A DNA stretch of 64,000 nucleotides from positions 14,732-78,731 of the forward strand of contig CAJQNK010000121.1 in the NCBI GenBank assembly GCA_905479655.1, read 5' to 3'. Below, one piece after another: positions 20,905-42,329 of this stretch; positions within the stretch are counted from its first letter, which is position 1; each line of letters begins with the position of its first letter. The translations under genes and the position numbers were made by a program. The notes under the pieces are model-generated. The model ran no database searches. It saw only the letters and a program-made list of their open reading frames with translations, and was not told the origin of the DNA. The stretch comes from an uncultured bacterium. Lineage in GTDB: Bacteria > Acidobacteriota > Thermoanaerobaculia > Multivoradales > JAHEKO01.

Positions 20905-21199
20905 GAGGTACGCGCGTTGGGGAAGGGCTCGAGACGAATCCCGTCTTTTCTCCTCGGGCGCGGATGGCGTGTCAATCTCCGCAGGGCGCGGTCCAGGTGA
21001 CGGGGCCGCCCCCCGCGGCGGCCAGGGTGGCGGCTTCCACGGCGTCGAGCTCGCGGCCGTCAGGGCCGCGAGTCCGTCGAACGGATCCTGCGGCGGCCTC
21101 GTCCCCGCGCTCGAGGCCGGGTACACTCTCGCCAGCGGCGCCCCCCGCGGCGCAGCTCCCGCCTCGGCCACCATTCCCTTCCGCAGGACAGGAGATCCC

Positions 21200-23178: not shown

Positions 23179-23190
23179 GGGAGTTCCCGG

Positions 23191-24480
23191 TCAGTCCTCG
23201 AGCCAGTCCCAGCGCTTGCGCAGGGCCCTGGGGATCTGTCGCACCAGGCTGCGATGGACTTGGAGGCGGGTCTCGAGATCGCGGCGGCTGGTGCCGTCGC
23301 CCCGCAACCCGTCGCGGAAGGTGCGGCCCGTGAGTCGGGCGAGAACCCCCAGCTCCCGGGCATAGCCTCGCAGGAAGCGGCCGGGGGAGGCGTTCTTCGC
23401 CAGGGTCAGCACGCGGTTTCGCGCGGTGTAGAAGTCGAAGGTGGGAGAGCGCTCGACGCTCGAGGCCGCGTGCAGATGACGCACGACCGCCGACGGCTCG
23501 TAGCGGATGCGCCAGCCGTCGGCCCGCAGTCGCCACGAGAGGTCGGTGTCCTCGTAGTACATGAAGAAGTCGCGGTCGAACAGGCCGACCCGGTCCAGGG
23601 CGGCGCGTCGGAGCAGGACGGCCGCACCACACATGGCAGGCACGTCCACGGCCTCCTCGTACTGTCCGACGTCGATCTCGTGGATCCCCCGGTCCGCCGG
23701 GTCTCCACGGTCGTCGAGGATGGTGCCGACGTTGTTGATCACGCCGACCGCAGCGGCCCGCGCGAGCTCGGCCGGGAGCCCGATGCGGAGTCGGTCGGCT
23801 CGGCCAGGCACCTCCAGCGTCGCCACGGGCCGGCCGTCCACCTCGACCTCGGCCTCCCCGGGCCGCTCACCCGTGGCGACGAGCTCCAGGTTCAGACGGA
23901 CCTCGGAGCCGGGCTCGGGCTCACCCAGGGGTACGAGGAGCTCGGCCTGCCCCTCCACGACGCGACCGAGGACGCCGCCGGCCGCCGCCCAACCGCCGAA
24001 TCCGTCGCCGAAGAGGAGCTTGTCGTAGTCGCAGCCGTCGAACGAGCACCGGGGGCCGACGACGATCCGGCCGTGGCTCCCGGCTCCTCGCGAGCGGAGG
24101 AGGACGGGCACGAACGGGCGGTCGAAGAGGATCTTGGAGGTCACGGCCCCGATCGTCTCGTCCTCGCCGGCCGCGGCCAGGAGACGTTCGAGCCAGTCCG
24201 GCTCGGGGAAGGCGTCGTTGTTGATGAGGGCGACGAAGGGAGCGCTCGTCTCCCGGATCCCCAGGTTGTTGCCGCCCGCGAACCCGAGGTTGCCGGACGC
24301 CTGGATCAACCGGACCCAGGGATGGCCTTCGCGCACCAGCTCGACCGAGGCGTCGCTCGAGCGGTTGTCGACGACGACGGTCTCGAACGACGGGCAGGTC
24401 AGGCGGCGCAGGCTCTCCAGCAGCCTGGGGAGGAGACGAGACCCGTTGTAGTTGACCGTGATGACGCTGACTTCGTGCAA
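23191..24480 (-). CDS. Glycosyltransferase family 2
   Basis: 'VSVITVNYNGSRLL...VVDNRSSD...GFAGGNNLG...INNDAFPEPDWL' GT2 motifs. Confidence 0.85.
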   Translation of the reverse strand: MHEVSVITVNYNGSRLLPRLLESLRRLTCPSFETVVVDNRSSDASVELVREGHPWVRLIQASGNLGFAGGNNLGIRETSAPFVALINNDAFPEPDWLERLLAAAGEDETIGAVTSKILFDRPFVPVLLRSRGAGSHGRIVVGPRCSFDGCDYDKLLFGDGFGGWAAAGGVLGRVVEGQAELLVPLGEPEPGSEVRLNLELVATGERPGEAEVEVDGRPVATLEVPGRADRLRIGLPAELARAAAVGVINNVGTILDDRGDPADRGIHEIDVGQYEEAVDVPAMCGAAVLLRRAALDRVGLFDRDFFMYYEDTDLSWRLRADGWRIRYEPSAVVRHLHAASSVERSPTFDFYTARNRVLTLAKNASPGRFLRGYARELGVLARLTGRTFRDGLRGDGTSRRDLETRLQVHRSLVRQIPRALRKRWDWLED

Positions 24481-24505
24481 GCCGCTCGGCTCCCCGATCG
24501 CAGCG

Positions 24506-24760
24506 CTACCGCCCGCGCAGGCGGCGCCACAGCCGGCGCGCGGCGCGCGTGTAACGGAAGGTCCGGCTCGAGAGGATCGAGGTGAGGTGGCTCTGCACCT
24601 GGTCGAGCTGCTCCCGCGTGCGGACCACCTCGCGGCGCAGCCGGGCGTTCTCGACCTGCATCCGTTCCAGCTCCGCCTGCGGAGGCTCGTCTCCGGACCG
24701 CTTCACCTCGGCGGCGACCGGCTTGATCTTCGATGCGGTGCGCCCCGTCGCTTGGGTCAT
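24506..24760 (-). CDS. Small coiled-coil hypothetical protein (84 aa)
   Basis: Internal ATG with a strong GGGAGG RBS 7 nt upstream. Heptad-like 'ELERMQVENARLRREVVRTREQLDQVQSHL'. Confidence 0.4.
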   Translation of the reverse strand: MTQATGRTASKIKPVAAEVKRSGDEPPQAELERMQVENARLRREVVRTREQLDQVQSHLTSILSSRTFRYTRAARRLWRRLRGR

Positions 24761-24887
24761 GGGTTCGCCTCCCGGCCCGGGTAGCCGGAGCGGGTTCGCT
24801 CCGGAGGCCGAGAAAACCAGTCCAGGCAATCTAGCACGCCGAGGAACGCGGCATGGCGGGGGGAGCCCGCCGGCGACGCCCGGCTCG

Positions 24888-26285
24888 TCAGTCGACGTAG
24901 CCCAGGGCCTCGAGGGCCTTCTTCTCCTCGTCCGTCAGGGTAACGGCCTCCTCGTCGCCGCCGCGCGTGAGCTCCTGGGCCAGCTGGCGGCTCTCCTCCA
25001 GACGTCGGCGCAGCTCGCGCGCCAGCCGGTTGGCGCGCTGCCGCTCCTCCGGCGCCAGGTCGTGGCGCTCCTCCGGGTCGGCGAGCAGGTCGTAGAGCTC
25101 GACGGTTCCTTGACCGAGGTCGACACGGACCTTCTCGTCGTCCGTCCGCAGGCCGTACTTCTTCGCGTTGATCGAGTTCTGGCTGAACGTGGAGCGCTTG
25201 TGGCGCTCGCCGCCCGCGATCAACGCCAGCAGGCTCTCCCCCTGGATTCGGGCCGGGGGCTCGACGCCCAGGAGCTCGGCCAGGGTCGGGAGCACGTCCA
25301 CCGTCTCGACGACGTGGTCGATCCTCCGCCCGGCCCCCTCTCCGCCGGGCATCTTGATGACCAGTGGGATCCTGGCCGTCTCCTCGAAGGTCTGCGAGTG
25401 CAGCCAGCGGCCGTGCTCGCGGAACTCCTCGCCGTGGTCGGCGGTGAGGACGATCAGGGCCTCGTCGTACATCCCGCGGTCCCGCAGGCCCTGAAGGAGC
25501 TGGCCGATCTCCTCGGCGAGATACCGTGCACCCGCTCGGTAGAGGCCCTCGATCCGCGCCCGGATCTCCTCGCTCACCTGCGTCCGGTTGCGATCCGTCC
25601 CGATGAGGAAGCTGGTGGCGCAGTTGCCCTCGTCGTCGCAGAACTCGCTGCCGTCCCCGCTGACCCCCAGGCCCTCGCGCAACGGCTCGGGGGCGAAGTA
25701 GGGCAGCTTGTTGTCGGAGCCCTGGGAGAAGTCGGAGTGGGCGTCGTAGTAGTGCAGGAAGAGGAACAACGGCTCCCCGGACTCGTTCCCGGCGTCGATC
25801 CGTTCGAGGGCGGCGCTGTTGACGCGCGGCGCGTAGGTCGGGCGGTGGGGGAGCCGGCGGTAGTCGTCGAAGCCGCGATCGAAACCCCACTTCGGATCGA
25901 GCCACTCCGTCGTGACGATCGCGGAGGTGGTGTAGCCGGCCTCCTTCACCAACTCGCCCAGGACCGGGATGGTCGCGGTGAGGGGGGCTCCTCCCGGGCG
26001 CACGGTGTGCGCCTCGGGGTAGAGCCCGGTGAACAGCGACATGTGGGACGGCAGCGTGTGCGGGATCTGGCACACCGCCTCCTCGAACAGCACGCCGTCC
26101 GCCACCAGGCGGTCGAGCGCCGGAGTCGGCGAGGATTCCGCCCCCGAGAGGGCCCCGAGGGCATCCGCGCGGAAGGTGTCGAGAGAGATCAGCACCACCA
26201 GCCGCGGCGGCGTCGCCTCGGGAGGCGCGCCGCAGGCGCACGGCGCGAACGCGAGGAGGAGCGGTAGGCCTTGCAGGAACCTCAT
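24888..26285 (-). CDS. Sulfatase-like hydrolase/transferase (alkaline-phosphatase superfamily), secreted
   Basis: Signal peptide. 'VVLISLDTFRADAL' metal/nucleophile motif with Ser/Thr instead of Cys. 'LTADHGEEF' and 'HYYDAH' motifs. Confidence 0.8.
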   Translation of the reverse strand: MRFLQGLPLLLAFAPCACGAPPEATPPRLVVLISLDTFRADALGALSGAESSPTPALDRLVADGVLFEEAVCQIPHTLPSHMSLFTGLYPEAHTVRPGGAPLTATIPVLGELVKEAGYTTSAIVTTEWLDPKWGFDRGFDDYRRLPHRPTYAPRVNSAALERIDAGNESGEPLFLFLHYYDAHSDFSQGSDNKLPYFAPEPLREGLGVSGDGSEFCDDEGNCATSFLIGTDRNRTQVSEEIRARIEGLYRAGARYLAEEIGQLLQGLRDRGMYDEALIVLTADHGEEFREHGRWLHSQTFEETARIPLVIKMPGGEGAGRRIDHVVETVDVLPTLAELLGVEPPARIQGESLLALIAGGERHKRSTFSQNSINAKKYGLRTDDEKVRVDLGQGTVELYDLLADPEERHDLAPEERQRANRLARELRRRLEESRQLAQELTRGGDEEAVTLTDEEKKALEALGYVD

Positions 26286-27587: not shown

Positions 27588-27766
27588 CCTGACCTTCTCA
27601 CCGGATGTCGTTGCGAGAGGCCGTAGGTGCCTGGAGATGCAAGGCTTGCGACCGAGGGCGACGCAGTCGTACTGTTTGTACGTCGAGGAGCCCGAGCGGA
27701 GCGTAACGTCGCAGATTCAGGTACATACGGTCTCGTAGTAGACAGTTGGTGAGAAGGTCAGGCTAG
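27584..27766 (-). mobile_element. MITE-like element, copy B (183 bp, inverted relative to copy A); its terminal CTAG supplies the stop codon of the HEAT/pseudocaspase gene
   Basis: The reverse complement of 27584..27766 aligns with 13403..13585 with only a handful of mismatches. TIRs CTAGCCTGACCTTCTCACC / GGTGAGAAGGTCAGGCTAG. Confidence 0.75.
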
Positions 27767-30372
27767 TACTTCGACTGACTGCGGCGCCGCGGAGGCAGGG
27801 CCTCGACACCCCGGTTCAGGGCCTGGATCGCGGCCTCCTGGACCTCCGGTGACGGGTCGCCCTTGGCCATCCTCTCCAGGATGCCCCGGACCTCGTCGGT
27901 GTCGGCGAAGGGGCCGAGGGAGAGGGCGGCGAGCCGCCGCACCGAGGGAGCCGGGTCCCGGGCGGCCTCCAGGAGAGCGCCGACGGCCTCCGGGGCGATC
28001 CGCCTCCCCAGGGCTCGGACGGCGTCGGAGCGGACGGCGCTCGAGGGGTCGCGGGCCGCGGTGGCCAGGGCCTCGACGGCCAGGTCGTTGCCGCCCCGGT
28101 GGATCTCTCCGAGCACCTCGGCTGCGCTCCGGCGCGCGACCGGCTCCGCATCCGGCGTCAGGAGCACCTCGGCGACCCGCTCGGCCACCTGGGGATCGTC
28201 CGCGCTCTCGACGAGGCTGTCGACCGCTTCGGCCCGCGCGGTCGGGTCGGGGTCGCCCAGCCCCCGCAGCAGCACGGCCAGGGTCCGCTCGTCCAGGTAG
28301 GCGGCGCTCTTCTGGTAGGTGAGGCCCCGGAGGTAGTCCGACTTCTCCCGCACCTCGTCGGGGGCGGCCTCCTGGGCCAGCAGGGACGGGTCGAAGTCCC
28401 GACTCTCGAGCTGACGCCGGGCCTCGGCGCGGACGTAGGGATCCTCGTCGTCCGCGCGGGCCGAGAGGGCCTCGATCGCCGCCGGGGTACCGATCGCTCC
28501 CAGGGCCGAGACGGCCGCCCGCCGCAGTCCCACGGTCGCTCCCGCGGCAGCCTTCGCCGTCAGCTCCGGCACGGCGGAGGCGGCCCCCAGTTGGCCGAGG
28601 GCCTCGACGGTGGCCACCGCGACCTCCTCCGGAGGATCCGCCAGGAGGAGGTCGCGCAGCAGCGCTTCGGCCTCGGGGCCGCCGAGCCGCCCCAGGGAGG
28701 TGGCGGCCGCGGCGGCGACGGCCGGCCGATCGTCCCCGGTGGCGGCGGTCAGGACCTCGAGCACCACGTCGCGGGCCTCCTCGACGTAGACCCGGCCGAG
28801 GCTCAGAGCCGCGAGCTGGCGAACGTCGGGGTTGGGGTCGGTCAGGACCCGCTGGGCGAGGGCCTCGCTCGCCGCCGCCGACGGACCGAGGCGGCCCACC
28901 GCCGCCGTGGCCTCGCGTCGCACCTCTTCGTCCGGGTGCTCGAGGGAGTCCACGAACACGTCGCGGTCCTCCTGACGGCCGAGGGCGGAGAGCTCCTGGA
29001 GGGCGGCCAGGATCACGGTCGAGGTCTCGCCGTTGCGCCCGACGACGGCGCGCAGGAGCGCCGCGGTCTCCGGGTGTCCCGACACCGCGAGCGAGCGCAC
29101 CGCCGCCCAGCGGACGGACGGGTCCGGGTCCCCCAGCGCGGCGCGCAGGGCGGAGCGGTCCTCGGTTCGGGGGCTCTCGAACCGCGCGATGCGCCCCAGG
29201 GCGCGATTCCGCACGACGGCGGGGACGGTCGCCCCGGCGGCGACCTCCACGAGGGCGTCGCGGGCCGCGGTGGACTCCAGCTGTCCGAGGACCTCGATCG
29301 CCCAGGAGCGCATGCGAACCGCCTCGGGCCCCTCGAGGGCGACCCTCGGAAGGCCGGCTTCCGGGTCCAGGGCGATCTCTCGCAGCAACGCGACGAGGCC
29401 GGGATTGGCGCCCGGCTCCGCGGCGGCGAGGGCGGAGATCCGCTCCATGGTGAGCTGGGCGGACTCGAACGAGATGGCGCCGCGCCACTCGTGCCGGAGG
29501 GCGTCCGGCTCGGCCGTCGCCAGCAACCGGAACTCCGGCGCGGAGCGGGGCACCGTCAGGACGGCGAGGTCGAAGGTCCCGGGACCCTGGACCGCGGAGT
29601 GGGCGAGCGCCGTCGCCGCGGCCTCCCCGGCACCCCCGACCGCCTCGCTGCGGAGCGCCCGGGCCAGGGAGCGGGCGAAGGCGTCGCTGCCCCACAGACC
29701 GGACGCGCCGTCGGGCCTCCGCTCCCGGCGCTCCCTCTCCAGGTCGCAGACCAGGAAGGCGGTCACGGGCGCGCGTCGGCCCTCCTCCTCGAGGCGCTGC
29801 AGCATGGGATGGCGCGATACGAGGGTCCACCAGGCCTTCAGGTCGTCGCCGGCCTTCGACCGCACGCCGTACGGCAGCCGCTGACCGCAGGCCGGCAGGG
29901 TCAGGAGCACCTCCACCGCCGGGATCTCGCCCAGCCAGCTCCCGATCTCCTCGTCGGAGAGCAGGGTCCAGGGGCTCTCGCGGTCGCCGTCGGCCGGGAC
30001 GAAGCGGAGTCCGCGCCCGGTCTCCACCGGCAGGTTGAGATAGAGAACCAACTGGTCACCCGGGCTCGCCTGTCTCAGGAGCTCCCCGAGCGAGCGCGTC
30101 AACGCGCCGCGCGTCGCCTGTCTCGGCCCGAGGTAGGTGACATCGAAGCCGTAGGCGTCCTCGAGGGTCGCGGCCAGGCTCGCACCGCCGTCGCCGGCGC
30201 CGTCCGCGACCAGGGCCAGGTGCGCTCCGGGGGTCTGGGCCGACGGTTCCGAAGCCCTGGCCGTGTCCCGTGGGAGGAGCGCGAGGGCCGCCGGGAGGGC
30301 CAACGCCAGGATCAGCGCTCGGCGGAGGCGGCCGGCGCGACGGTGGGGCGTCACGATGCCGTGGGCTCTCAT
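27763..30372 (-). CDS. Secreted HEAT-repeat (PBS-lyase type) protein with an N-terminal caspase-like domain lacking the catalytic His (pseudocaspase)
   Basis: Signal peptide (ALILALALPAALALL). Caspase-like fold positions 'QLVLYLNLPVETGRG' (His replaced) and 'VLLTLPACGQR' (Cys kept). More than 10 HEAT repeats of the type 'DPDPSVRWAAVRSLAVSG' / 'DPNPDVRQLAALSLG'. Confidence 0.7.
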   Translation of the reverse strand: MRAHGIVTPHRRAGRLRRALILALALPAALALLPRDTARASEPSAQTPGAHLALVADGAGDGGASLAATLEDAYGFDVTYLGPRQATRGALTRSLGELLRQASPGDQLVLYLNLPVETGRGLRFVPADGDRESPWTLLSDEEIGSWLGEIPAVEVLLTLPACGQRLPYGVRSKAGDDLKAWWTLVSRHPMLQRLEEEGRRAPVTAFLVCDLERERRERRPDGASGLWGSDAFARSLARALRSEAVGGAGEAAATALAHSAVQGPGTFDLAVLTVPRSAPEFRLLATAEPDALRHEWRGAISFESAQLTMERISALAAAEPGANPGLVALLREIALDPEAGLPRVALEGPEAVRMRSWAIEVLGQLESTAARDALVEVAAGATVPAVVRNRALGRIARFESPRTEDRSALRAALGDPDPSVRWAAVRSLAVSGHPETAALLRAVVGRNGETSTVILAALQELSALGRQEDRDVFVDSLEHPDEEVRREATAAVGRLGPSAAASEALAQRVLTDPNPDVRQLAALSLGRVYVEEARDVVLEVLTAATGDDRPAVAAAAATSLGRLGGPEAEALLRDLLLADPPEEVAVATVEALGQLGAASAVPELTAKAAAGATVGLRRAAVSALGAIGTPAAIEALSARADDEDPYVRAEARRQLESRDFDPSLLAQEAAPDEVREKSDYLRGLTYQKSAAYLDERTLAVLLRGLGDPDPTARAEAVDSLVESADDPQVAERVAEVLLTPDAEPVARRSAAEVLGEIHRGGNDLAVEALATAARDPSSAVRSDAVRALGRRIAPEAVGALLEAARDPAPSVRRLAALSLGPFADTDEVRGILERMAKGDPSPEVQEAAIQALNRGVEALPPRRRSQSKY

Positions 30373-31559
30373 GGGCAGATCTCCCCCCAGTTGGCCGCCG
30401 TCGTCTCGGGTCGCAGGAGACACAGTTTCGAGACCAGGATCTCGGCCTTGACCTCGCCCGGCAGGCTCGCTCCCAGCTCGAAGAGTGTCTGGAGCTCCTC
30501 GACGATCTGCCGGTCGGTGGCCGACGGCTCGGCTCCCAGGGCCGACGCCTGCTCCCAGTCGTGGAGGGCGACGAAGCAGGCGTTGCGGACCTTCGGGTCG
30601 AGACCGGCCTGGAACTCCAGCTCGAGCAGCAGGCTCCGCAGCTCGGCCAGCGCCGGCCCCTGCACGTCCAGCAGGCCCAGGGAGAGGAGGTTGGTGCCCC
30701 GGACGATCTCGATCGGCGACTGGACGATCTGCCGGTCGGCGGTGAGCTGCGCGAGGAGGATCTTGGTCTTGCCGATGATCTCGCTCACCGACAGCTTGCC
30801 GTCGCCGTTCGCGTCGGCTGCGGGGTCGCGGAGCGTCTGGAGCAGGCTGTAGGTGAAGATGCCGTGACCCAGCTCCGGAAACTCGTAGGCCTCGGCCCGC
30901 GCGGCGCCGAGAACCACGAGGCCCGAACCGATCTGCTCCTCCACCGTCCGTTCGAAGCTCGCCTCGGGGAAGGCGTGGCGGGTGAGCCGCACGTCGCCCT
31001 CTCCGGCGCGGCTCGTGCCCGTGCCCGAGACCACGCTCTCGACGTCCCCGCTGTGGCAGTGGTCGAGGATCAGGACCTTGCGGTCCGCCGGGATGTCGCG
31101 CAGGTACTCCATCAGGTGGCTCAGGCGGATGCCGTCCACCGCGAGCTCGGCGATCGACGCGGTATGAGTGAGCCAGTAGGTGTGCTCGCCGGCGGTCAGG
31201 TCCTGCACCCCGTGGCCGGCGAAGTAGATCAGCACGGTGTCCTGTTGCCGGGCCCTTCTCGCCATTCGCACCAGCTCGCGGACGATGCGCCTGCGGGTCG
31301 CCTCGTCGTCGATCGCCGTCGCCACCTCCCAGCCCTGGTCCTCGAGGAGCTCCGCCATCTGCCGCGCGTCCGGTACCGCGAAGTCGAGCTCCGGCACGCC
31401 CTCGAGCTCCGCGAGGTAGGTGTTGATGCCGATGACCAGCGCGTAGCGCACCGGCGTCAGGTCCTCGGGTTGGGCCCGGACCCCGCTCGTGACGCCGCCG
31501 CCGACCAGGGCGATCGCGACGCCCCAGCGGGCGAGAGCGGAGAGGCGCCCTCGGCTCAC
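30369..31559 (-). CDS. Secreted caspase-domain (peptidase C14, orthocaspase-like) protein; GTG start at 31559
   Basis: Signal peptide (LSALARWGVAIALVGGGVTSGVRAQ). Catalytic dyad motifs 'VLIYFAGHGVQ' and 'VLILDHCHSGD'. 4-bp overlaps with both neighbouring genes. Confidence 0.8.
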   Translation of the reverse strand: MSRGRLSALARWGVAIALVGGGVTSGVRAQPEDLTPVRYALVIGINTYLAELEGVPELDFAVPDARQMAELLEDQGWEVATAIDDEATRRRIVRELVRMARRARQQDTVLIYFAGHGVQDLTAGEHTYWLTHTASIAELAVDGIRLSHLMEYLRDIPADRKVLILDHCHSGDVESVVSGTGTSRAGEGDVRLTRHAFPEASFERTVEEQIGSGLVVLGAARAEAYEFPELGHGIFTYSLLQTLRDPAADANGDGKLSVSEIIGKTKILLAQLTADRQIVQSPIEIVRGTNLLSLGLLDVQGPALAELRSLLLELEFQAGLDPKVRNACFVALHDWEQASALGAEPSATDRQIVEELQTLFELGASLPGEVKAEILVSKLCLLRPETTAANWGEICP

Positions 31560-34500
31560 GGGAGGGACGCCCGGAGGTCGGAGGAGAGGTCGCGCGAGCG
31601 GAGCCGTTCGCGGATCTCCTCCCAGGAGTCCGCGCTCCGGTTCAGCCCCGCGACGACGGCGTCGAAGGTGGCGGCCAGGAGCTCGTCGGTGGCGTAATGG
31701 TAGGCCACCTCCGCCTCGTAGACCGCCACCTCCTCGAGGTCGGTGCCTTCGTCGAGTCCGAAGAGGAGTCGGTAGTCGGCCTCCGCCGCGTCGCCGGCGG
31801 GACCCGGAGGGTAGAGCGAGCGCCACAGGGGCAGATCCACGATCGACTCGGCGTCGCGGGCGGCGCCGCGCGAGACGGCGACCGCGGGCAGTGGCGCCTC
31901 CAGGAGCCGCGCGGCGTCCAGGATGCCCGCGCCGTAGCGCTCCTCGTCCCAGGTCGCGTCGTCGCCGCAGTCCGCGCTCGCGGGGACTTTGTCCCCCCCC
32001 GGCTGCCAGGCCGTCTCGCGGGCCAGGAGCCGGAACGCGCGGGTCAGCTCGCCGGCGTCGCGCAGGACCTCGAAGTCCGGGTCGCCCCGGTGGCGGGCGA
32101 ACCAGAGGGCGGCGACGCCCGCCGTGGAGGAGGTCGCGTAGGTGGTCCCCGTTCCCATCCCCGTGACCCAGTCGTCCCCGTCGATAGTCGCTCGCCAGAC
32201 CGACTCGCCGGTGGCGGCGAAGTCCACCGCCGAGCCCCGGGAGCTATGGGCCCACGGCCGGCAGCCCACGTTGACCGCGGCCACGGCGATCACCGAGTCG
32301 AAGCGCGCCGGCCAGACGACGGTGCGCACGTAGTTGCCGGCGGCCGCGATGATCAGGTAGCCGCGCCGCTCGGCCGTCCGGACGGCCTTCCACAGCCGCC
32401 AGCTCGGCACCCCGCCCATGGCGATCGAGGCCAGGTCGGTGGCGACGCCGACCCGGGAGCGGTCGTCGCCCGCGAGGTCGAGGATGGCCTGGCTCATCCG
32501 CTCGGTGCTGAAGTTGATCACCGAGCTGTTGACCCGCAAGGGCACCAGCCGGGCGCCCCGCGCGACACCGGTGGGGCACTGCCTCTCGCCGTCCTCGTCA
32601 TCGAGCTGACAGCCGCTGGGCGAGACGATGGCGCTGCCGCTCCCGGTACCGTGGGCCGGGTTGTCCAGCGGCCGGTGCTTCACCCGCTCGTCCAGGGGGT
32701 CCTTGCGGTCGCGGGAGTAGTCCCAGCCGACCTCGACCCAGAGGGGGTCGTCGCCCGCGGGGTCGAGCAGCTCGGGGTGCGGCAGGTAGCCGGTGTCGGG
32801 GTGGGCGACGACCACACCCGCGGCCTCGGCGCCCTCCACGGCGCCGTGGGCGCGCAGAGCGGCCCAGGCCTCGGGCACCCGCAGGGTGCGGTGGCTCCAG
32901 AGGACGTCCGCGGCCGCCCGCTCGTCGTCGCCGGCGCCACCCGATCCGCGGGAGCCGGCGGCGTTCGGGTCGGGCGCGCTCTGCGAGCGGGGAATCGCGG
33001 CCTCCAGGACCGGCTCGGCGCGCCGGGCGCCCCACCTCTCCCGCTCGCGGTAGGCCTCCTGGAAGGCGCGTCCGACCGAGATCTCGCCGGCGTTCCCGGA
33101 CCGTTCGGCCGCGGTGCTCAGGACGACGACGGTGGAGTCGCCCGTGCCGGATGCCGCCGCGTCTCGGGCGCCACCGGCCGAGCGCACGCTCTCGGCGGCC
33201 GCCCGGGCCGCCGCCGGGTCGTCGAAGTGGAGGGCCACCCCCTCGCTGGCGACCTCGGACCGGTCGACGCGCACGGCCCGATGGACGACGGCCCAGTCGT
33301 CGACGACGACCGGCGCGCCGTGGCGGGTGAGGCCCTGGGCGGAGAGCCGCAGGAAGCGACCGAGCGCGTCCTCGTCGCCCCGGGTCTCCGGCACCGCCCC
33401 CCGTGCCGCCGGAGGGAGCGCGAAGAAGCCCGGGTCGAGCTCCCGGGTCGCGGCGATCATCTTGTACCGGTCGGTCGAGCTCGCCAGCTCGGGCGGCAGG
33501 AACGTCCTCACGAACACGGTGTCGCTACGGCCGGGCGCGATGGCCTCCCGGACCTGGCCCTGGGGGTAGACGAGCTGGTCGCCGCCGTCGGACCAGAGTC
33601 CCACCACCACCGCCCAGACCTCCCGGTCGGAGCGGTTGGTCAACGTGAGCTGGAGCCGGGTCCCGGGGGTCACGCTCTCCGGCACGGGCTCGCCGTCGGG
33701 ATCGTCGGCGAGGGAGATCTCCAGGTCGACGTCCAGGGCCGAGGCGGGGTTGCCGAGATTGAGCAACGCGTGCCAGCGACCCCAACGGGCGAGCTGCGCC
33801 TCCAGCTGTTCCAGAGCGTCGGGGTGCGCCGCGGGGACGTCCCCGAGGATGTCGAGGTCACGTCCCTCGAGGAGGTAGCGGTCGCCTTCGCGGCGTACCC
33901 GGATCTGCGCATCGACCCGCTCCGCCACCCGCTCCATCGACTCGAAGCCGTCCACGACGGCCTTCAGCGGCTCCAGGCCCGGGTCGTCGCCGACGTGGAC
34001 CGTGACCCGGTCGACCCTCGGGACGATCTCGTCGAGGACGGCCCGGGTGTGGGGTCCGACCGTGCCCTCGAGCACCTCGACCTCGGACTCGAAGGCCGCC
34101 GCCGAGACGACGCGCACGGTGGCGACCGCCGGCACGGAGCCGTCGAACTCGCGGGTGCCCTGCGGAAAGACCCGCAGCTCGGAGCCCGGCGCCACGCCGT
34201 AGGCCCGTCCCGCCGACAGGGTGGCCCGCTCCGTGCCGTCGCCCACCGGCTGGACCGGCACGAAGGCCCGGGGCCGTGCCACCTCCACGCCGAACAGCTC
34301 CTGGTCGATCCCGGTGCCTTCGATCTGGGGCGTCTGCGAGGGGAAGCGCTGGGAGACGTCGGAGCGCACCGGCTCCATGACGTCACGGTAGGTCGCGCCC
34401 GGCGACGCCTTCTGCAGCGCCCGGGCCAGGAACCAGGTCATGGCGCCGTGGCGGCGATCGTCGAACCGCGTCTCGTTCGAGAGCTGGTTGGCGCGACACC

Positions 34501-35179
34501 CCGAGATCAGGACGTAGCCGGCGCCCAGCGCGCGGAAGTCGTCCGGCCCCTCCACCGCGCGGCCCGCCCCGGGGTCCGGCGGCGGTGGCGGGCGCAGGTC
34601 CGGCGGTACCTGGCGCGGCACGGTGCCCGCCTCGGCCGCCCGCGCGGCGCTGCCGGAGTGACAGGAGTCGAGGATGAAGGTCACGTGGGGCGTCTTGGCG
34701 GCCAGCTCGGCCATGAGCCGGTTGATCTCGTCGTCGCGCAGGTCGCGCACGTCGCCTACCCGGGAGTCGTGGGGGACCAGGCTCTCGTCCCAGCCGTCGG
34801 GCTCGTCGCCCGAGTCGTCGAGCATCTGGGAGCCGTGCCCGCTGTAGTGGAGGACGACGACGTCGCCCGCCTCGGTCGGCTCGATGAGGCTCGTGCGGAT
34901 CGCGTCGAGGATGCCCTGCCGGGTCGCCTCGGCGTCGCGCAGGACGCGGACGTTCTCCGGTGGGAAGTCGAAGTCCCCCACCAGGACCGTCCGCATGAGC
35001 TCGACGTCGTTACCGCAGCCGCGCAGGTCCGAGAGTCCGGGCGCGAGGTAGTCGTCGATGCCGATCAGCAAGGCCCGGCGGGCGGCGCCCGCCGCCGGGG
35101 CCAGAGCGAGGAACAGGAGGAGGGTGGTGGCCGCTGCCAGCGCGGTCGGCAGGACGGCGGGTCGGGCTCCCTGGGTCAT
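31556..35179 (-). CDS. Secreted caspase (C14) - subtilisin-like (S8) protease fusion protein
   Basis: Signal peptide. N-terminal caspase motifs 'VVLHYSGHGSQ' and 'FILDSCHSGS'. C-terminal S8 motifs 'HGTGSGSAIVS' (His box) and 'GTGTTYATSSTAGVAAL' (Ser box). Confidence 0.8.
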   Translation of the reverse strand: MTQGARPAVLPTALAAATTLLLFLALAPAAGAARRALLIGIDDYLAPGLSDLRGCGNDVELMRTVLVGDFDFPPENVRVLRDAEATRQGILDAIRTSLIEPTEAGDVVVLHYSGHGSQMLDDSGDEPDGWDESLVPHDSRVGDVRDLRDDEINRLMAELAAKTPHVTFILDSCHSGSAARAAEAGTVPRQVPPDLRPPPPPDPGAGRAVEGPDDFRALGAGYVLISGCRANQLSNETRFDDRRHGAMTWFLARALQKASPGATYRDVMEPVRSDVSQRFPSQTPQIEGTGIDQELFGVEVARPRAFVPVQPVGDGTERATLSAGRAYGVAPGSELRVFPQGTREFDGSVPAVATVRVVSAAAFESEVEVLEGTVGPHTRAVLDEIVPRVDRVTVHVGDDPGLEPLKAVVDGFESMERVAERVDAQIRVRREGDRYLLEGRDLDILGDVPAAHPDALEQLEAQLARWGRWHALLNLGNPASALDVDLEISLADDPDGEPVPESVTPGTRLQLTLTNRSDREVWAVVVGLWSDGGDQLVYPQGQVREAIAPGRSDTVFVRTFLPPELASSTDRYKMIAATRELDPGFFALPPAARGAVPETRGDEDALGRFLRLSAQGLTRHGAPVVVDDWAVVHRAVRVDRSEVASEGVALHFDDPAAARAAAESVRSAGGARDAAASGTGDSTVVVLSTAAERSGNAGEISVGRAFQEAYRERERWGARRAEPVLEAAIPRSQSAPDPNAAGSRGSGGAGDDERAAADVLWSHRTLRVPEAWAALRAHGAVEGAEAAGVVVAHPDTGYLPHPELLDPAGDDPLWVEVGWDYSRDRKDPLDERVKHRPLDNPAHGTGSGSAIVSPSGCQLDDEDGERQCPTGVARGARLVPLRVNSSVINFSTERMSQAILDLAGDDRSRVGVATDLASIAMGGVPSWRLWKAVRTAERRGYLIIAAAGNYVRTVVWPARFDSVIAVAAVNVGCRPWAHSSRGSAVDFAATGESVWRATIDGDDWVTGMGTGTTYATSSTAGVAALWFARHRGDPDFEVLRDAGELTRAFRLLARETAWQPGGDKVPASADCGDDATWDEERYGAGILDAARLLEAPLPAVAVSRGAARDAESIVDLPLWRSLYPPGPAGDAAEADYRLLFGLDEGTDLEEVAVYEAEVAYHYATDELLAATFDAVVAGLNRSADSWEEIRERLRSRDLSSDLRASLP

Positions 35180-35402
35180 CGGCCTCCTCCCTTCGCCCCG
35201 GGGGCCAGGAAACGGAGACGGCCGGCGTCCCCCGAGCTCCGGCCGGAGCTCCGTCGGTTACGCCGGGCCGCTCGGTACGCGGGCACCTCGGCTCATGGAC
35301 AGGCGGACGGAACCGGCCAATCGTTTCAAACCGTCTTCGTCGATCCTACCGCTCGCCGCCCCATGGCCACAAGCGACGCCGTACGGTACGGACGGGTTCG
35401 GC

Positions 35403-37178
35403 TCAGACGGTGATCGTCTCGCCCGAGAACGTCGTGAGCGAGAAGCCGGCGAAGCTCTCCTGGTAGATCGCTCTCTCCTCGCGCAGGAGGCGCAGCGCGA
35501 TGGCCTCTCCGAGGAGGTTCCCCTCCCGGTCGTCGGAGCGCCAGTGGATCCCCGACATGTCCCGGCCCCACGTGAGGTTGTAGGCCAGCTTGTTGAGCTC
35601 GCCGCCGAGTGTCAGCTCCGGTCCGTCGACCCCCGTGATGTAGTCGACCAGCGCGGAGCCGTCGGGCGTCGGCTTCTTGGGCGACGGGAACGGCAACGAC
35701 TCGTCGAACCACGCCTTGAGCACCGTGACGCAGGCGCCCGCGGTGACGGCGTGGCCGGCCGGGAACGACGGATGGGTGGGGCAGCCGACCGGGAAGAGCT
35801 GGGGCAACATCCAGGAGCCGTTGTTGATGCTCAGGCGGGCGTTGTTGATGAGCAGGTTGCGGTCGAAAATGGAACCGAGCGTGATCGTGGCGTTCAACAG
35901 GTCCGAGTGGATCGGATGGCTGACCATGCCGGCGAGCGTCGCGTGCACCCGCGCGGCGTACTCCTCCGGGCGGAGGAACCGGTGGACGAACCACTTCTCG
36001 TACCAGCAGGAGCGCTCGGCCTTGTGGGCCTTGCCCAGAAGCTCGGCCAGGTGGGCGGCGCCGAAAGTCCCGAATCCGAGTTGCCGGCCGGAGTTCTGGT
36101 AGGGGTTGGCCTGATCGTAGCCGGACGCTCCGACCAACTGGTTGAGAATCAGGAAGGCCTTGAAGTAGGCCGAGAAGACCATGTCGCGTCCCGCGACGAA
36201 GCCGAGGGCTCGGGGGTCCGTGACGTAGCGGGACTTCGCCCGGCCCGGCGGCGGAGCCGGAGTGCCCCCCGGGAACCCCCGCTGGGACTCGAGCCACTCG
36301 TCGAAGGTGGTCAGGAAGTCGAACTCCCGCTTGCCCACGGTGACGCGCTGGCCGACCGGCGCCCCGTCGTAGCTGAACCCCTGGAGCAGGAACTGGGAGA
36401 CGAGATAGCCGTCCTGTACGCCCGGGTACTCGACGCGGAAGAGGTCGTTGGCGCGGATCTCGCCGGTCACCGGGTCCCGCGGGCCCCGGTAGCCGGAGAA
36501 CGTGGCCAGCTGCTCGCGGGCCTTGACGGCATCGGGGTGGGCCTCGAAGTCCTGGAAGTTGATGTCGCGCAGGATGGCCATCCAGTAGAGCTCGGCCATC
36601 TCGGCCGCGAGCTCGGCCGAGGCGAAGGCGGGCGGCGGGTTGGCGACGCCGATCGCCGGTGAGTCGGGTCCGTCGATGGAGTAGGCCAGGCCGCCGACGG
36701 GGTTCGCCAGACGCGACCCGCCGCCGGCCGGGACGGTCTCGAAGGCCTCGAACGTCCCGGCGGTGACGGCGGCCAGCAGAGCGTCGTAGGCCGCGGGGTC
36801 GACCTGTCCGAGGTCGTCGTGGGGCAGCGTCTTCGAGAAGTTGCCGATCCGGTTGGAGTAGAGCTCCTCGTCGCCGTTGGTCGCGTGCAGGGGCTCGGGC
36901 AGCGCGAGCTCGGCGTCGGCCGCCGCCACGCGGATGGCGTGGGCCTCGAGCTTACGGTCCTGGAGGTTCGCTCCGTGCGGCGGCGCGGGGGCGGTCGACC
37001 TCGGCGCCGCGGCTGCCGGCAGTCGGCCCGCGATCGCCCCGAGAGAGGCGGCGCCGAGCCCGCCGAGAAGACCCCGGCGGCTCAGTTCCGAGTGCTTGTG
37101 GGCCTCGCGACGAGGGTCGATCGACTTCGCATCGTCAGGGTGCGCCAAAGAACGGATGGGCAGATTCGAGTCCTTCAT
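35403..37178 (-). CDS. Tat-secreted vanadium-dependent haloperoxidase-like protein (PAP2 superfamily)
   Basis: Tat motif 'SRRGLLGGLGAASLGAIAG'. 'KWFVHRFLRPEE', 'CPTHPSFPAGHAVTAG', 'RDMSGIHWRSDD' (R-x5-H-x3-D). Confidence 0.8.
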   Translation of the reverse strand: MKDSNLPIRSLAHPDDAKSIDPRREAHKHSELSRRGLLGGLGAASLGAIAGRLPAAAAPRSTAPAPPHGANLQDRKLEAHAIRVAAADAELALPEPLHATNGDEELYSNRIGNFSKTLPHDDLGQVDPAAYDALLAAVTAGTFEAFETVPAGGGSRLANPVGGLAYSIDGPDSPAIGVANPPPAFASAELAAEMAELYWMAILRDINFQDFEAHPDAVKAREQLATFSGYRGPRDPVTGEIRANDLFRVEYPGVQDGYLVSQFLLQGFSYDGAPVGQRVTVGKREFDFLTTFDEWLESQRGFPGGTPAPPPGRAKSRYVTDPRALGFVAGRDMVFSAYFKAFLILNQLVGASGYDQANPYQNSGRQLGFGTFGAAHLAELLGKAHKAERSCWYEKWFVHRFLRPEEYAARVHATLAGMVSHPIHSDLLNATITLGSIFDRNLLINNARLSINNGSWMLPQLFPVGCPTHPSFPAGHAVTAGACVTVLKAWFDESLPFPSPKKPTPDGSALVDYITGVDGPELTLGGELNKLAYNLTWGRDMSGIHWRSDDREGNLLGEAIALRLLREERAIYQESFAGFSLTTFSGETITV

Positions 37179-37417: not shown

Positions 37418-39553
37418 CTACGAACCGGGCGCGGTCGCCGCGAGCGCGCGCAGGAGCTCCGGGAGCTCGCCGGCGTCCTGGAAGCGGTCTTCGGGGCGCT
37501 TCGCGAGGAGGCGGCCCAGCGCCTCGTCCAGCCCGGGCGGCGCAGGCTGCCCACCGGGCAGGCGGAGTGGCGTCGGGTCGTCGTGGAGGACCTGGTAGAG
37601 GATGGCGTAGCGGCCCGGGCCCGAGAACGGCAGGTCCCCGGAGAGCATCTGGTAGAGCAGGACTCCCAGGGACCAGAGGTCGCTGGTCGGGGCCGCTACG
37701 CGCCCCCGGATCTGTTCGGGAGACATGTAGGCCGGGGTCCCGAGGCTCGCGTCGGCTTGTGTGATGCGGGACTCCTCCGCCATGAGCGCCAAACCGAAGT
37801 CGACGATGACGGGCCGGTCCTCCGACCGGAGGATGATGTTCGACGGCTTGATGTCCCGATGGACGATGCCGGCGCGGTGCGCCGCGTCCAGCGCCTCGGC
37901 GATCCGCGCGGCGATGGTCAGCGCACGGCCGGCGGGCAGGGGGCCGCCCTCCAGCACCTTGTTGAGGTCCCGGCCCTCGTAGTACGGGATCACCAGGAAC
38001 ATCCGACCGTCGGCCGTCTCTCCCAGGTCGTGGATGGCGCAGAGCCCCGGATGACCCAGGCGCGAGGCGGCCATCGCCTCCCGCAGCAGGCGGGTCCGCG
38101 CGAGCTCGTCCGGGGCGGGGGTGGGGGCCAGGAATTTGAGGGCGACGGTGCGCTGGAGGTGGAGGTCGCGCGCCAGGAAGACCTCGCCCATGCCGCCTCC
38201 GCCGAGGCGCTCGACGATTTCGTAGCGCGAGAGGCTTCGGCCCAGGATGGTGCCGGAAGGCGCCGACGCCGGCATCGGCGGCCGCTCCACGACGGCGGTC
38301 GGTTCCAGGAAGTCGTCCGCGCTCGCGTGGTGCTGCAGGAGCGACGAGACGAGCCGGTGGAGATCCGGGTCGTCCCCGCACTCGGTCGCCAGGAAGTCGT
38401 CGACCTGGGAGGGCTCCCGCCGGAGGGCCTCGCCGAAGGTCTCGCGCGCCTTGTCCCACAGGCGCCGCTCGGTCGAGGAGTCGGTTGGGGAGGGTGCCGC
38501 CGGGCCGCCTCGTTGGCGGAGGAAGTCCCGGAGGAAGCGGTGGCTCACGGCCAGAGTGCCGTCCTCCAGGCGCCGCAGGAGGCCCAGCGCCTCGAGCCTC
38601 CGGGGGCCCGCGCCGAATCCCTCCCCCGCGCCCCCTCGGGGGTCGTGGGTGAGTCTCTCCTCCTCTTGCTCCGAGAGTGGCCTCCCGCCGCGCGAGAGCT
38701 CGACCAGGAGCTCGCGCTCGCTCTCGGCGAGCAGGTCGAAGTCCACCGTGAACAGGTACTGAACCATCGGCTCGCTGTCCACCGCCTCGATGGCCTTCGA
38801 CAGGTCACCCAACTGCGAGAGCCGCTTCGCCAGGAGCTGGAGGAGATAGGGATGGCCGGCGCAGACGTCCGCCACCTCTTCGGCGAGCTCGGCGGACCAG
38901 TCCGGGCGGTCGCGGGCTCGCCGAGTCTGGAGGACGCACTCGACGGCGGCGACTCGTTCCAGCCCCGCGAGGTAGACGGGGGGGCCGAAGCCGTGGAGGA
39001 AGGGGGAGGTGGCGCTCCGCTGGTGGCGCAGCTCCCACAGCCGCACGGTCGAGGCCATGACGGTCCGGAGGTGGGAGCCTCCATGGATCAGCTTGCGGAG
39101 CTTCGGGAGCAGGCCGGCCTCGCGCTGCGAGACCTCGAGCAGGACCTCCGGCTCATCGATCAGCAGGAGCAACCGCCGATCCAGCCGGGCGACCTGCCGG
39201 GTCAGCCGGCGGAGGCAGTGGAACAGGTCGTCGTCGAGAACGTCGTCGATGCCGATCCCGAGCTCCGCCAGGTCTTCCTCCGCGTCCAGCAGCGCCTCGC
39301 GGACCTCCTGGTGGAGATCGGCCAGGTCGGTCGCGCCCTCCAGGTTCCAGAACAGCGGCAGATAGGGGAGACCGGGACGCTGCCGGGCGAGGTGCTCGAG
39401 CTGGCGCAGGAAGGAGGTCTTGCCGATCCGGCGCGAGCCCAGGACCCAGACCGCGTCGCTCATGTCCTCCATCGTCTCCGCCAGCTCGGCGTCCCGACCG
39501 TAGAAGGACTCCCCCCGGACCCACTGCCCGACGACGAACGGTGACGGGCTCAC
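37418..39553 (-). CDS. STAND/AAA_16-type ATPase fused to a C-terminal Ser/Thr protein kinase; GTG start at 39553 overlapping the upstream stop
   Basis: 'FYGRDAELAE...VLGSRRIGKTSFL' (Walker A), 'LLLIDEPE' (Walker B). Kinase 'RYEIVERLGGGGMGEVFLA...ALK', 'HRDIKPSNIIL', 'DFG', 'GTPAYMSPE'. Confidence 0.8.
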   Translation of the reverse strand: MSPSPFVVGQWVRGESFYGRDAELAETMEDMSDAVWVLGSRRIGKTSFLRQLEHLARQRPGLPYLPLFWNLEGATDLADLHQEVREALLDAEEDLAELGIGIDDVLDDDLFHCLRRLTRQVARLDRRLLLLIDEPEVLLEVSQREAGLLPKLRKLIHGGSHLRTVMASTVRLWELRHQRSATSPFLHGFGPPVYLAGLERVAAVECVLQTRRARDRPDWSAELAEEVADVCAGHPYLLQLLAKRLSQLGDLSKAIEAVDSEPMVQYLFTVDFDLLAESERELLVELSRGGRPLSEQEEERLTHDPRGGAGEGFGAGPRRLEALGLLRRLEDGTLAVSHRFLRDFLRQRGGPAAPSPTDSSTERRLWDKARETFGEALRREPSQVDDFLATECGDDPDLHRLVSSLLQHHASADDFLEPTAVVERPPMPASAPSGTILGRSLSRYEIVERLGGGGMGEVFLARDLHLQRTVALKFLAPTPAPDELARTRLLREAMAASRLGHPGLCAIHDLGETADGRMFLVIPYYEGRDLNKVLEGGPLPAGRALTIAARIAEALDAAHRAGIVHRDIKPSNIILRSEDRPVIVDFGLALMAEESRITQADASLGTPAYMSPEQIRGRVAAPTSDLWSLGVLLYQMLSGDLPFSGPGRYAILYQVLHDDPTPLRLPGGQPAPPGLDEALGRLLAKRPEDRFQDAGELPELLRALAATAPGS

Positions 39554-42060: not shown

Positions 42061-42329
42061 TCGGTGGTTCCGTCGGCCCGACGGTCCTCCCCGTCGGCAT
42101 CGGGTTCGCAGGGGGCCGAGTCGTCTTCCGGCCAGGGGTGAATCCCGTCGTCCGCGCGGCCGTGGGGTAAGTTGACAGCGGTTCGGCCCCCGCATATTCT
42201 CACCGCACTTCGAAGTTTGTCATCTGATTCGAGCCGGGACCCGAAGTCCGGCCCTCCTCCGATCCGCCAGGTTGGGAAGGTCCAGCACGGCCGCGTCGCT
42301 CTCGGCGCCGTCGACCCGGCGGAGACGGA

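Follow-up and report, generated by a model that had tools for sequence, protein, structure and literature searches.

Bacterial proteins that combine a caspase homologue, a serine-protease fold and a DUF4384 domain in one polypeptide have been described in the Alphaproteobacteria, where an N-terminal trypsin-like fold with an intact His-Asp-Ser triad is joined to a pseudo-orthocaspase with an altered, QC dyad (Klemencic et al., 2019, PMC6426788). Here we describe a protein with a similar set of parts, encoded at positions 31556-35179 on the minus strand of a 64,000-nucleotide stretch of DNA from an uncultured bacterium (Acidobacteriota, Thermoanaerobaculia, Multivoradales, JAHEKO01; assembly GCA_905479655.1, contig CAJQNK010000121.1, positions 14,732 to 78,731), the whole of which we call the window. 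This 1207-aa protein, hereafter the fusion, shares with those of the Alphaproteobacteria the caspase homologue, the serine-protease fold and a DUF4384-type beta domain, but its caspase dyad is intact and its partner is a C-terminal subtilisin fold, which carries threonine at the position of the catalytic serine. All features of the fusion given below lie on the minus strand, and their coordinates are those of the window.

Subtilase folds with altered triads are known from Clostridioides difficile, where CspA and CspC work beside an active protease in proteolytic signalling (PMC7200643). The triads of CspA and CspC are degenerate, whereas the fusion keeps Asp, His and Asn invariant and exchanges only Ser, conservatively, for Thr; the cellular setting and the partners are also different. 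A natural Ser-to-Thr replacement in an otherwise classical triad occurs in TSP50 (PRSS50), a reported threonine protease (PMC3344824), but TSP50 has the S1 trypsin fold and is a single mammalian gene, while the fusion has the S8 fold and belongs to a bacterial clade. According to a survey from 2024, subtilisin-like proteins use Ser-His-Asp or Ser-Glu-Asp triads (PMC11593635), and subtilases go unmentioned in a 2012 survey of prokaryotic caspase homologues. Our full-text literature searches found no description of a Thr-type subtilase or of a caspase-subtilase fusion. The fixed Ser-to-Thr replacement is the most interesting point of this protein.

The fusion is a conserved protein

The open reading frame (ORF) of the fusion runs without interruption in a minus-strand frame which translates to an ordinary-looking protein, with G+C contents of 0.76/0.53/0.95 at the three codon positions (GC1/GC2/GC3). 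Among 5.8 billion protein clusters searched, about 64 full-length relatives were found (1140-1270 aa, 35-52% identity, 95-100% query coverage), in which Pfam records both domains and which come from independent metagenome assemblies of six phyla or classes. Among species-representative genomes, the full-length form is found only in metagenome-assembled genomes: in Acidobacteriota (Thermoanaerobaculia), Gammaproteobacteria (Candidatus Thiodiazotropha and Arenicellales), Alphaproteobacteria (Rhodobiaceae), Desulfobacterota (Desulfocapsaceae), Nitrospirota (Nitrospirales) and Candidatus Entotheonella, the best match having 49% identity. A second, much larger group of relatives, about 670 aa long, matches residues 1 to about 640 alone, that is, the caspase domain and the middle region. 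The identical protein is recorded on two contigs, in the NCBI and ENA collections. An earlier reading of the DNA letters alone (the sequence-only reading) had proposed one polypeptide with a C14 and an S8 domain, and the Pfam matches to both domains within an uninterrupted ORF confirm this. The reading had also raised the concern that a frameshift or assembly error might hide two separate genes; this is excluded, because the same architecture recurs in more than 60 independent assemblies. The fusion protein is real, conserved and uncharacterised.

Threonine at the position of the catalytic serine

The match to Peptidase_S8 (PF00082) covers residues 788-1028, with 51.8 bits against a cut-off of 21.8 (E = 9.4e-14), and lies within a subtilase-fold (S8-like) domain of residues 761-1060 (32000..32899), as delimited by Pfam, hhalign and Foldseek. 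Compared with subtilisins by Foldseek, the domain gave an E value of 1e-15 and target-normalised TM-scores of 0.7-0.85. Three of the four catalytic positions have their usual occupants: Asp795 (32795-32797) corresponds to Asp32 of subtilisin, with AHPDTGY aligned to AVIDSGI; His843 (32651-32653) corresponds to His64, with NPAHGTGSG aligned to NNSHGTHVAG; and the oxyanion residue Asn949 (32333-32335) corresponds to Asn155, with AAAGNY aligned to AAAGNE. At the position of Ser221 stands Thr1013 (codon ACC, 32141-32143), in the motif GTTYATSSTAG, which aligns residue for residue to GTSMASPHVAG. The same register was obtained from phmmer, with subtilisin BPN' and M-protease, and from hhalign of a 63-sequence profile against BPN' (probability 98.2%). 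D795, H843, N949, T1012 (the equivalent of Thr220) and T1013 are invariant in 63/63 homologues, at a mean column identity of 41%, and Thr is also found in all 38 Thr-type representatives from the library search described below, fragments included. The sequence-only reading had taken the S8 signature GTTYATSSTAG to be intact. In this it was mistaken, since Thr occupies the Ser221 position in every homologue examined; the Asp box, which it had left unchecked, is present as D795. Judged by this alignment, the domain is an S8-fold homologue, but by definition no serine peptidase.

In the hhalign alignment, the position of subtilisin Gly166, on the floor of the S1 pocket, is taken by an invariant Val, and this speaks against a pocket for Arg in the subtilase domain itself. 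Mycosin (TIGR03921), the closest of the named NCBIfam models, was rejected as an assignment with 84.5 bits against a cut-off of 278.75; the PatA/PatG protease and QhpE were likewise rejected, lying far below their NCBIfam cut-offs.

A Thr-type clade and its Ser-type sisters

Residues 741-1207 were searched against 1.84 billion cluster representatives, and the catalytic columns were read in the best 140 new representatives. The closest of these have D-H-N-T at the catalytic positions, with the motif GTT[FY]AT; the next 97 all have D-H-N-S, with GTS[FY]AVA, and are mostly stand-alone subtilases of 540-600 aa. In a neighbour-joining tree of the catalytic domain, 32 Thr-type and four degenerate sequences form one clade, and the 97 Ser-type sequences form a separate one. 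The degenerate members, which are still long ORFs, read DHSG (twice), DHSA and DINA. They have lost their residues jointly: the nucleophile together with the oxyanion Asn in three of them, the nucleophile together with His in the fourth. Since the Thr-type and degenerate sequences fall into one clade, the change from Ser to Thr occurred once and became fixed, with complete decay being rare afterwards.

The fixed differences between the two clades amount to four of about 300 aligned columns: E785, residue 847, C973 and residue 1013. Of the 97 sisters, 93 have Thr at residue 847, four positions after the catalytic His, whereas the 31 Thr-clade sequences that extend over this residue all have Ser or Ala. 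Read as a pair, positions 847 and 1013 are Thr and Ser in 93 sisters, Ser/Ala and Thr in 31 members of the Thr clade, and never Thr and Thr. In subtilases, the residue four positions after the catalytic His sits directly beneath the catalytic His and Ser; its counterpart in proteinase K is Cys73. If this also holds for the fusion, the change at residue 847 would seem to conserve volume and so to compensate for the methyl group that Thr adds at the nucleophile.

Another fixed difference, Cys973 (32261-32263), is invariant in the Thr clade and present in 1% of the Ser-type sisters. Its partner is likely to be Cys1071 (31967-31969), which is found in 37/38 Thr-clade sequences. A second pair, Cys857 and Cys868, flanks the loop after the catalytic His, and both pairs would fit putative disulfides in an exported protein. 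Taken together, the fusion and its Ser-type sisters (MEROPS S8A) have in common the fold, the equivalents of Asp32, His64, Asn155 and Thr220, a domain in the pro position and a helical C-terminal domain. The fusion differs from them in Thr at the nucleophile position, in Ser/Ala at 847 where the sisters have Thr, in the extra Cys pair and in the fused caspase.

Complete stand-alone Thr-type subtilases also exist (P0134, P0143, P0149, P0153, P0154 and P0156), several of them with a signal peptide or lipobox, and thus Thr is not strictly tied to the fusion. At the one such locus that we examined (L086, 8001-10605), the stand-alone Thr-type subtilase is the lipoprotein P0154; after it come a gene that weakly matches MauE and several small ORFs, and no caspase gene is found near it. 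This context hints at a role of the Thr-type subtilase in peptide or protein maturation that would be independent of caspases. Conversely, no gene with a subtilase domain stands beside the ~670-aa caspase-only relatives in about 55 caspase-only loci, and a Rosetta-stone adjacency of the caspase-only relatives and stand-alone Thr-type subtilases was rejected for lack of any subtilase match at these loci.

The caspase half is of the metacaspase type

Peptidase_C14 (PF00656) matches residues 34-291 with 102.2 bits against a cut-off of 21.4 (Pfam, E = 4.5e-29), and the Pfam and PDB sequence matches place the metacaspase-type domain at residues 33-292 (34304..35083). Its best matches among sequences of solved structures are yeast and fungal metacaspase-1, Arabidopsis MC4 and MC9, T. 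brucei MCA2 and Geobacter GSU0716. The segments HYSGHG, GDExDGxDE..P.D and DSCHSG align to AtMC4 and fungal metacaspase-1 without gaps or with one short gap, which brings His115 (34835-34837, in SGHG) and Cys173 (34661-34663, in DSCHSG) onto the dyad of metacaspase-4 and metacaspase-1. Cys173 is invariant and His115 is kept in at least 90% of the homologues, and the caspase signature, read from the letters alone as intact, is upheld. D121, E126, D128, D131, E132 and D138 of the acidic segment are invariant among homologues. In metacaspases, this segment and the D-x-C-H-S-G motif form the pocket for a basic P1 residue and the Ca2+ site. The p10-like stretch (ISGC..Q.S....GAM) matches the p10 part of metacaspase-1 weakly, with 13.9 bits and a domain E value of 0.29. 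By sequence, the domain is a metacaspase-type (C14B) caspase with a complete dyad.

Type I metacaspases and bacterial metacaspase-like proteases (yeast and fungal metacaspase-1, 4f6o and 7qp0; AtMC4, 6w8s; GSU0716, 3bij) have in common with the fusion a p20-type fold, the motifs HYSGHG and DSCHSG, the acidic segment GDExDGxDE..P.D and, on the weak match above, probably a second half like p10. The fusion differs from them in its signal peptide, in the beta-sandwich domains and the complete pro-subtilase unit that follow, and in a long linker, rich in Pro and Arg, behind the catalytic Cys. All characterised C14 members other than caspases cleave after Arg or Lys, and metacaspases depend on Ca2+, which in type II enzymes induces cleavage of the p20-p10 linker (PMC5756287). 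Given the features in common, Arg or Lys is expected at P1 also for the fusion (PMC5756287), and specificity for Arg/Lys and a response to Ca2+ are expected by homology. An assignment to the EACC1-associated caspases (NF047832) was rejected, with 60.6 bits against a cut-off of 140 and with the protein predicted to be exported.

Invariant arginines in two linkers predicted to be disordered

The linker after the catalytic Cys, at the p20/p10 position (residues 178-222, 34514..34648), is predicted to be disordered, with a predicted local distance difference test score (pLDDT) of 56-69 in the structural model described below. It contains two candidate autoprocessing sites, R180 (34640-34642), conserved in 62/63 homologues, and R189 (34613-34615), conserved in 63/63, together with R196 (59/63) and R207 (60/63). 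A second disordered linker (residues 729-760, 32900..32995; pLDDT <50 at 743-749) precedes the subtilase domain and contains Arg744 (32948-32950), a candidate activation cleavage site present in 63/63 homologues. R744 stands in the context x-R-[GSD]-[GLS]-G with variable flanks, 17 residues ahead of the invariant Trp761. Within these 17 residues, an R-[GSAD] motif was counted in 16/17 fused Thr-type representatives, versus 37/87 Ser-type sisters, which is about chance. R744 is lost in the members of the clade with a dead triad and a readable linker, namely P0150, P0152 and P0155, the last of which is still fused to a caspase domain that scores above the Pfam cut-off. On these observations, and on the invariant Val at the Gly166 position, an Arg-specific enzyme (the fused metacaspase or its partner) would be more likely to cut at R744 than the subtilase domain itself. 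Self-activation or two-step processing, as the sequence-only reading had suggested, would be compatible with invariant linker arginines beside a caspase of an Arg/Lys-specific type.

Domain architecture and export signal

An AlphaFold2 model of residues 33-1207, computed with a 63-sequence alignment as input, is confident and compact, with a pLDDT of 86.4 and a predicted TM-score (pTM) of 0.86. Stretches of at least three residues with pLDDT <50 are short and lie within the p20/p10 linker and at residues 743-749 and 1103-1106. Foldseek against the PDB recovered subtilisins and metacaspases with this model. Between the two protease-like domains, residues 293-628 (33296..34303; pLDDT mostly >90) form a spacer of beta-rich domains and one alpha/beta domain, which includes a region that scores as DUF4384 in some homologues. 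When modelled alone, this middle region reached a pLDDT of 88.3; for its fold identity, Foldseek gave weak and generic matches to Ig-like and beta-sandwich domains (E about 1e-4, TM-score <0.5). Residues 629-728 (32996..33295) form an alpha/beta domain in the position of a propeptide, which ends in the conserved SVGxAFDEAY..GAxRVEPxLE. With a profile built from residues 625-735, matches were obtained to the N-terminal part of 45/97 stand-alone Ser-type sisters and of stand-alone Thr-type subtilases. A conserved helical domain follows the catalytic domain at the C-terminus (residues 1061-1207, 31559..31999); it is helical in the AlphaFold2 model, and the matches to the sisters reach the C-terminus. 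On these profile matches, the subtilase unit consists of the pro-position domain, the catalytic domain and the helical tail, and the fusion is therefore a caspase/beta-domain protein joined to a complete subtilase unit.

The gene starts with an ATG at 35179, three nucleotides after the end of a Shine-Dalgarno sequence read directly from the DNA (GGGAGGAGG, 35183..35191). Residues 1-32 (35084..35179) resemble a Sec-type signal peptide, MTQGARPAVLPTALAAATTLLLFLALAPAAGA followed by AR, with a basic n-region, a hydrophobic h-region and an AGA c-region, and the mature protein would start as ARRALLIGID after MTQGARPAVLPTALAAATTLLLFLALAPAAGA. A signal-like N-terminus, as judged by a heuristic of hydropathy and AxA motifs, is present in 60/62 full-length homologues, one of which has a lipobox. 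In the homologues, the segment before the conserved KRALLIGID strand is variable and contains a strongly hydrophobic 10-residue stretch, usually with an AxA-like motif after it. The fusion protein is predicted on this heuristic to be Sec-exported, as the sequence-only reading had held. The window also encodes a TonB-dependent receptor, and the host is therefore taken to be diderm, with the periplasm as the first destination of the protein.

A translationally coupled three-gene unit

The GTG start at 31559 of the next gene, casp2 (30369..31559, minus strand), overlaps the TGA of the fusion by four nucleotides (GTGA), as can be read directly. An independent gene caller reported the same 396-aa product on other contigs, with 4-nt overlaps on both sides, in agreement with the overlap that had been noticed from the letters alone. 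The product of casp2 is a second, presumably exported caspase (Pfam C14, E = 1.8e-21) with intact dyad motifs (FAGHG, DHCHSG), an EF-hand-like loop (DANGDGKLS) and a signal-like N-terminus. The ATG of the third gene (27763..30372, minus strand; ATG at 30372) in turn overlaps the TGA of casp2 (ATGA). It encodes a presumably exported 869-aa protein in which a signal-like N-terminus is followed by a caspase-fold domain of about 200 residues and then by HEAT repeats (HEAT_2, E = 2.7e-59). The caspase-fold domain is recognisable from hhalign against the caspase domain of casp2 (probability 84%, E = 8e-6), and it is a pseudo-caspase: the position of the catalytic His is occupied by Leu, Ala or Ile, while the Cys is kept (..TLPAC..). 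The pseudo-orthocaspases are likewise caspase-fold domains with an incomplete dyad encoded beside active caspases (PMC6426788). The third gene product differs from such pseudo-caspase regulators in that His is lost and Cys kept, in about 650 fused residues of HEAT repeats and in its predicted export. Pseudo-caspases of the cFLIP type are a further analogue.

Beyond the window, casp2 orthologues stand directly downstream of the fusion in nine loci and upstream in three, and orthologues of the HEAT protein are found downstream of the fusion in eight loci; both also have signal-like N-termini. At least one further C14 ORF lies alongside the fusion in 20/23 non-redundant loci, and the other three have a CHAT gene or are too short to tell. 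Other neighbours are TPR-CHAT, C14+FGE-sulfatase and C14+Trypsin_2 genes, the last of these adjoining the fusion at locus L004. The fusion, casp2 and the pseudo-caspase/HEAT gene are thus a translationally coupled three-gene unit, which recurs in at least eight loci. The sequence-only reading had suggested a cascade on the strength of the overlap, and this idea gains support from the conserved linkage in 20/23 loci and the recurring third gene.

Two loci with the order casp2, X, fusion (L012, 8778-9989; L014, 8601-9917) contain an ORF X of about 400 aa with weak C14 similarity (E = 1e-4 to 4e-5), which may be a HEAT-less pseudo-caspase that replaces the HEAT protein. In a metagenome-assembled genome of the Arenicellales (OZ244194.1; L001, 1-23666), the homologous cluster consists of a TPR protein, the fusion, a C14 gene and a TPR-CHAT gene. 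Its flanks contain an operon of a cyclic-oligonucleotide-based anti-phage signalling system (CBASS) with SMODS, HORMA, an AAA-family ATPase (PF00004) and SAVED, as well as a HigB toxin pair, a pair of AAA_15 and UvrD genes and a type I restriction enzyme. This cluster is therefore embedded in a defence island, although the fusion carries a signal peptide.

A proposed protease module and its alternatives

These findings suggest that the fusion is a pro-enzyme matured by cleavage after invariant linker Arg residues, that its Thr site is still catalytic, and that the HEAT protein is a scaffold or regulator; we give this reading a probability of about 0.45, somewhat short of even odds. The fusion would then be the large subunit of an extracytoplasmic protease module, Sec-exported as a pro-form, with a metacaspase-type protease, beta-sandwich spacers, a pro-position domain, an Asp-His-Thr subtilase domain and a helical C-terminal domain in a single chain. 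Cleavage would occur after R180/R189, in the linker that follows the caspase Cys, and after R744, between the pro-position and subtilase domains, and the cutter would most probably be the caspase domain of the fusion itself or the partner caspase translated with it. The Thr-subtilase would not have decayed but would still be catalytically competent, though probably slow or specialised, and the pseudo-caspase/HEAT protein would serve as a scaffold or regulator. We read the Thr site as catalytic because the catalytic set is invariant, is lost jointly where it is lost at all, and is accompanied by a size-compensating change in a neighbouring residue.

Several observations weigh against this proposal. 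As the nucleophile of a classical triad, Thr usually performs very poorly, and the conserved Asp, His and Asn could instead serve binding, folding or a single autoprocessing event. The reciprocal swap at residues 847 and 1013 arose only once in evolution and so does not amount to statistical covariation. The linker Arg is not strictly tied to the fusion, since the stand-alone Thr-type proteins P0153, P0154 and P0156 lack it, while P0134, P0143 and P0149 have one without a fused caspase. The pro-position domain resembles a propeptide only in its position and in the order of its alpha/beta secondary structure: Pfam found no I9 propeptide similarity in it at E values up to 1, hhalign against the propeptide of subtilisin BPN' gave a probability of 0.1%, and propeptides were absent among its Foldseek matches. 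Finally, the hydropathy/AxA heuristic is the sole basis of the signal-peptide calls.

The strongest alternative, which we consider possible but doubtful, is that the subtilase-fold domain is a pseudo-protease and would act, with the pro-position domain, as a substrate-binding, sensing or autoinhibitory module of the metacaspase. CspC and CspA of C. difficile would be analogues, as would PCSK9 after its single autocleavage. Signalling pseudoproteases of the subtilase fold are established (PMC7200643). The nucleophilic Ser is replaced in every member, and the four members with DHSG, DHSA or DINA, which have lost further catalytic residues, persist as long ORFs, P0155 even with its caspase domain; therefore the domain can survive without the triad. 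A pseudo-protease would not, however, be expected to keep Asp, His, Asn and the Thr220 equivalent invariant in 63/63 homologues at a mean column identity of 41%, when the triads of the Csp type are degenerate. The degenerate members drop two catalytic residues together, which implies that these are maintained jointly elsewhere, and residue 847 is smaller exactly where the nucleophile is larger.

The maturation of the subtilase unit could also be its own affair. In that case, two independent proteases would be combined in a secreted degradative enzyme with external proteins as its food, in which the subtilase would remove its own pro-domain, with R744 as its own P1 residue, and the caspase would take no part in activation. 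The spacing of 17 residues between R744 and Trp761 resembles that of kexin/furin-type convertases, and the stand-alone Thr- and Ser-type relatives have the pro-position domain, some of them with an R-[AGS]-S-G-G-like motif at an equal distance from the Trp. This is improbable in our view: the invariant Val at the Gly166 position is unsuited to Arg, the R744 loop is modelled as floppy and not docked (pLDDT <50), and the Arg motif is near chance in the sisters (37/87), compared to 63/63 in the fused proteins. The strict linkage to caspase, CHAT and pseudo-caspase genes would also be unexpected for a nutritional protease.

Still less likely is a cytoplasmic effector of anti-phage defence or programmed cell death, comparable to the caspase, CHAT and subtilase proteases that activate bacterial gasdermins or to NTPase-linked conflict systems. 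What speaks for such an effector is the L001 cluster in its island with CBASS, toxin-antitoxin, a Gabija-like pair and type I restriction-modification, the TPR-CHAT genes that often adjoin the fusion, the STAND-like NTPase-kinase and TPR-AAA genes upstream in the window, and the weak NCBIfam match to the EACC1-associated caspase. However, this last match reaches only 60.6 of the required 140 bits, the upstream NTPase genes are not conserved beside the fusion elsewhere, and all three proteins of the unit and their orthologues have signal peptides by the heuristic. PADLOC found no match to a gasdermin model among six neighbouring proteins, only generic caspase, HEAT and kinase matches. With signal peptides predicted and no gasdermin or other effector matched among these six, a cytoplasmic role in defence or cell death is unlikely. 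Lastly, the chance that the fusion is an artefact, with two genes joined by a frameshift or a chimeric assembly, is negligible, given an uninterrupted ORF of uniform GC3 (0.95), over 60 homologues, from independent assemblies, that agree in length and in the order of domains, an identical protein on two contigs (NCBI/ENA collections), and an AlphaFold2 model that packs the domains into one confident structure (pTM 0.86).

Returning to the pro-enzyme with a catalytic Thr, it is tempting to speculate further. The Thr clade might be a family of subtilisin-fold enzymes with an Asp-His-Thr active site remodelled for the Thr methyl group by the reciprocal change of Thr to Ser at residue 847, which would be switched on outside the cytoplasm by a fused Arg-specific metacaspase cutting at an invariant Arg, in a relay from Cys to Thr protease on a pseudo-caspase/HEAT scaffold. 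We put this forward tentatively, the odds being against the scheme as a whole. Thr may have been selected because a hindered acyl-enzyme is less prone to hydrolysis than to transfer, ligation or persistence as a long-lived intermediate. A clade in which Ser221 has become fixed as Thr, with Asp, His and the oxyanion Asn invariant, would be a natural test of why classical triads avoid Thr, and could interest those who engineer peptide ligases. If the Thr proved inactive, the clade would instead show clearly how a metacaspase can acquire a subtilase as its regulatory domain. The three-gene module would indicate that networks of caspase-family proteins also exist outside the bacterial cytoplasm, a location not commonly assumed for the caspase homologues of bacteria. 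Since every member stems from an uncultured organism, whatever function is found would be new.

Flanking genes and other features of the window

The gene 223 bp upstream of the fusion (35403-37178, minus strand) encodes a 591-aa protein whose features are a twin-arginine signal (SRRGLLGGLGAASLGA) and a C-terminus weakly similar to PAP2/haloperoxidase (E = 7e-4, short of the Pfam cut-off). It is preceded by two large genes on the same strand, for a STAND-like NTPase-kinase (37418-39652) and for a TPR + AAA_16 protein (39550-42195). The NTPase-kinase has a weak AAA_16/nSTAND1 match and a Ser/Thr kinase domain which strongly resembles the PD-T4-6 kinase models of PADLOC, and the two genes may be a separate sensor or conflict module. 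The PAP2-like, NTPase-kinase and TPR-AAA genes were rejected as parts of the system, as they are not conserved beside the fusion elsewhere. On the other side of the caspase operon, a 1290-aa SNF2-family helicase of the bacterial type, with a SWIM zinc finger and an SNF2_assoc domain, is encoded at 17410-21282 (minus strand), and glycosyltransferase and sulfatase genes (21634-26285) lie between this helicase and the operon.

The window has a G+C content of 66-77%, at which long spurious ORFs occur on both strands. A plus-strand ORF of 1238 aa (31697-35413), antisense across the whole fusion gene, was considered and rejected as a real gene: its translation is of low complexity and rich in Arg, Gly and Ala, and the minus strand has a GC3 of 0.95. 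It is a by-product of the high G+C (72% GC genome), and could mislead gene callers. Between positions 8001 and 18000 the G+C content falls to 0.66-0.68, compared to 0.70-0.77 elsewhere in the window, and this segment may be acquired DNA.

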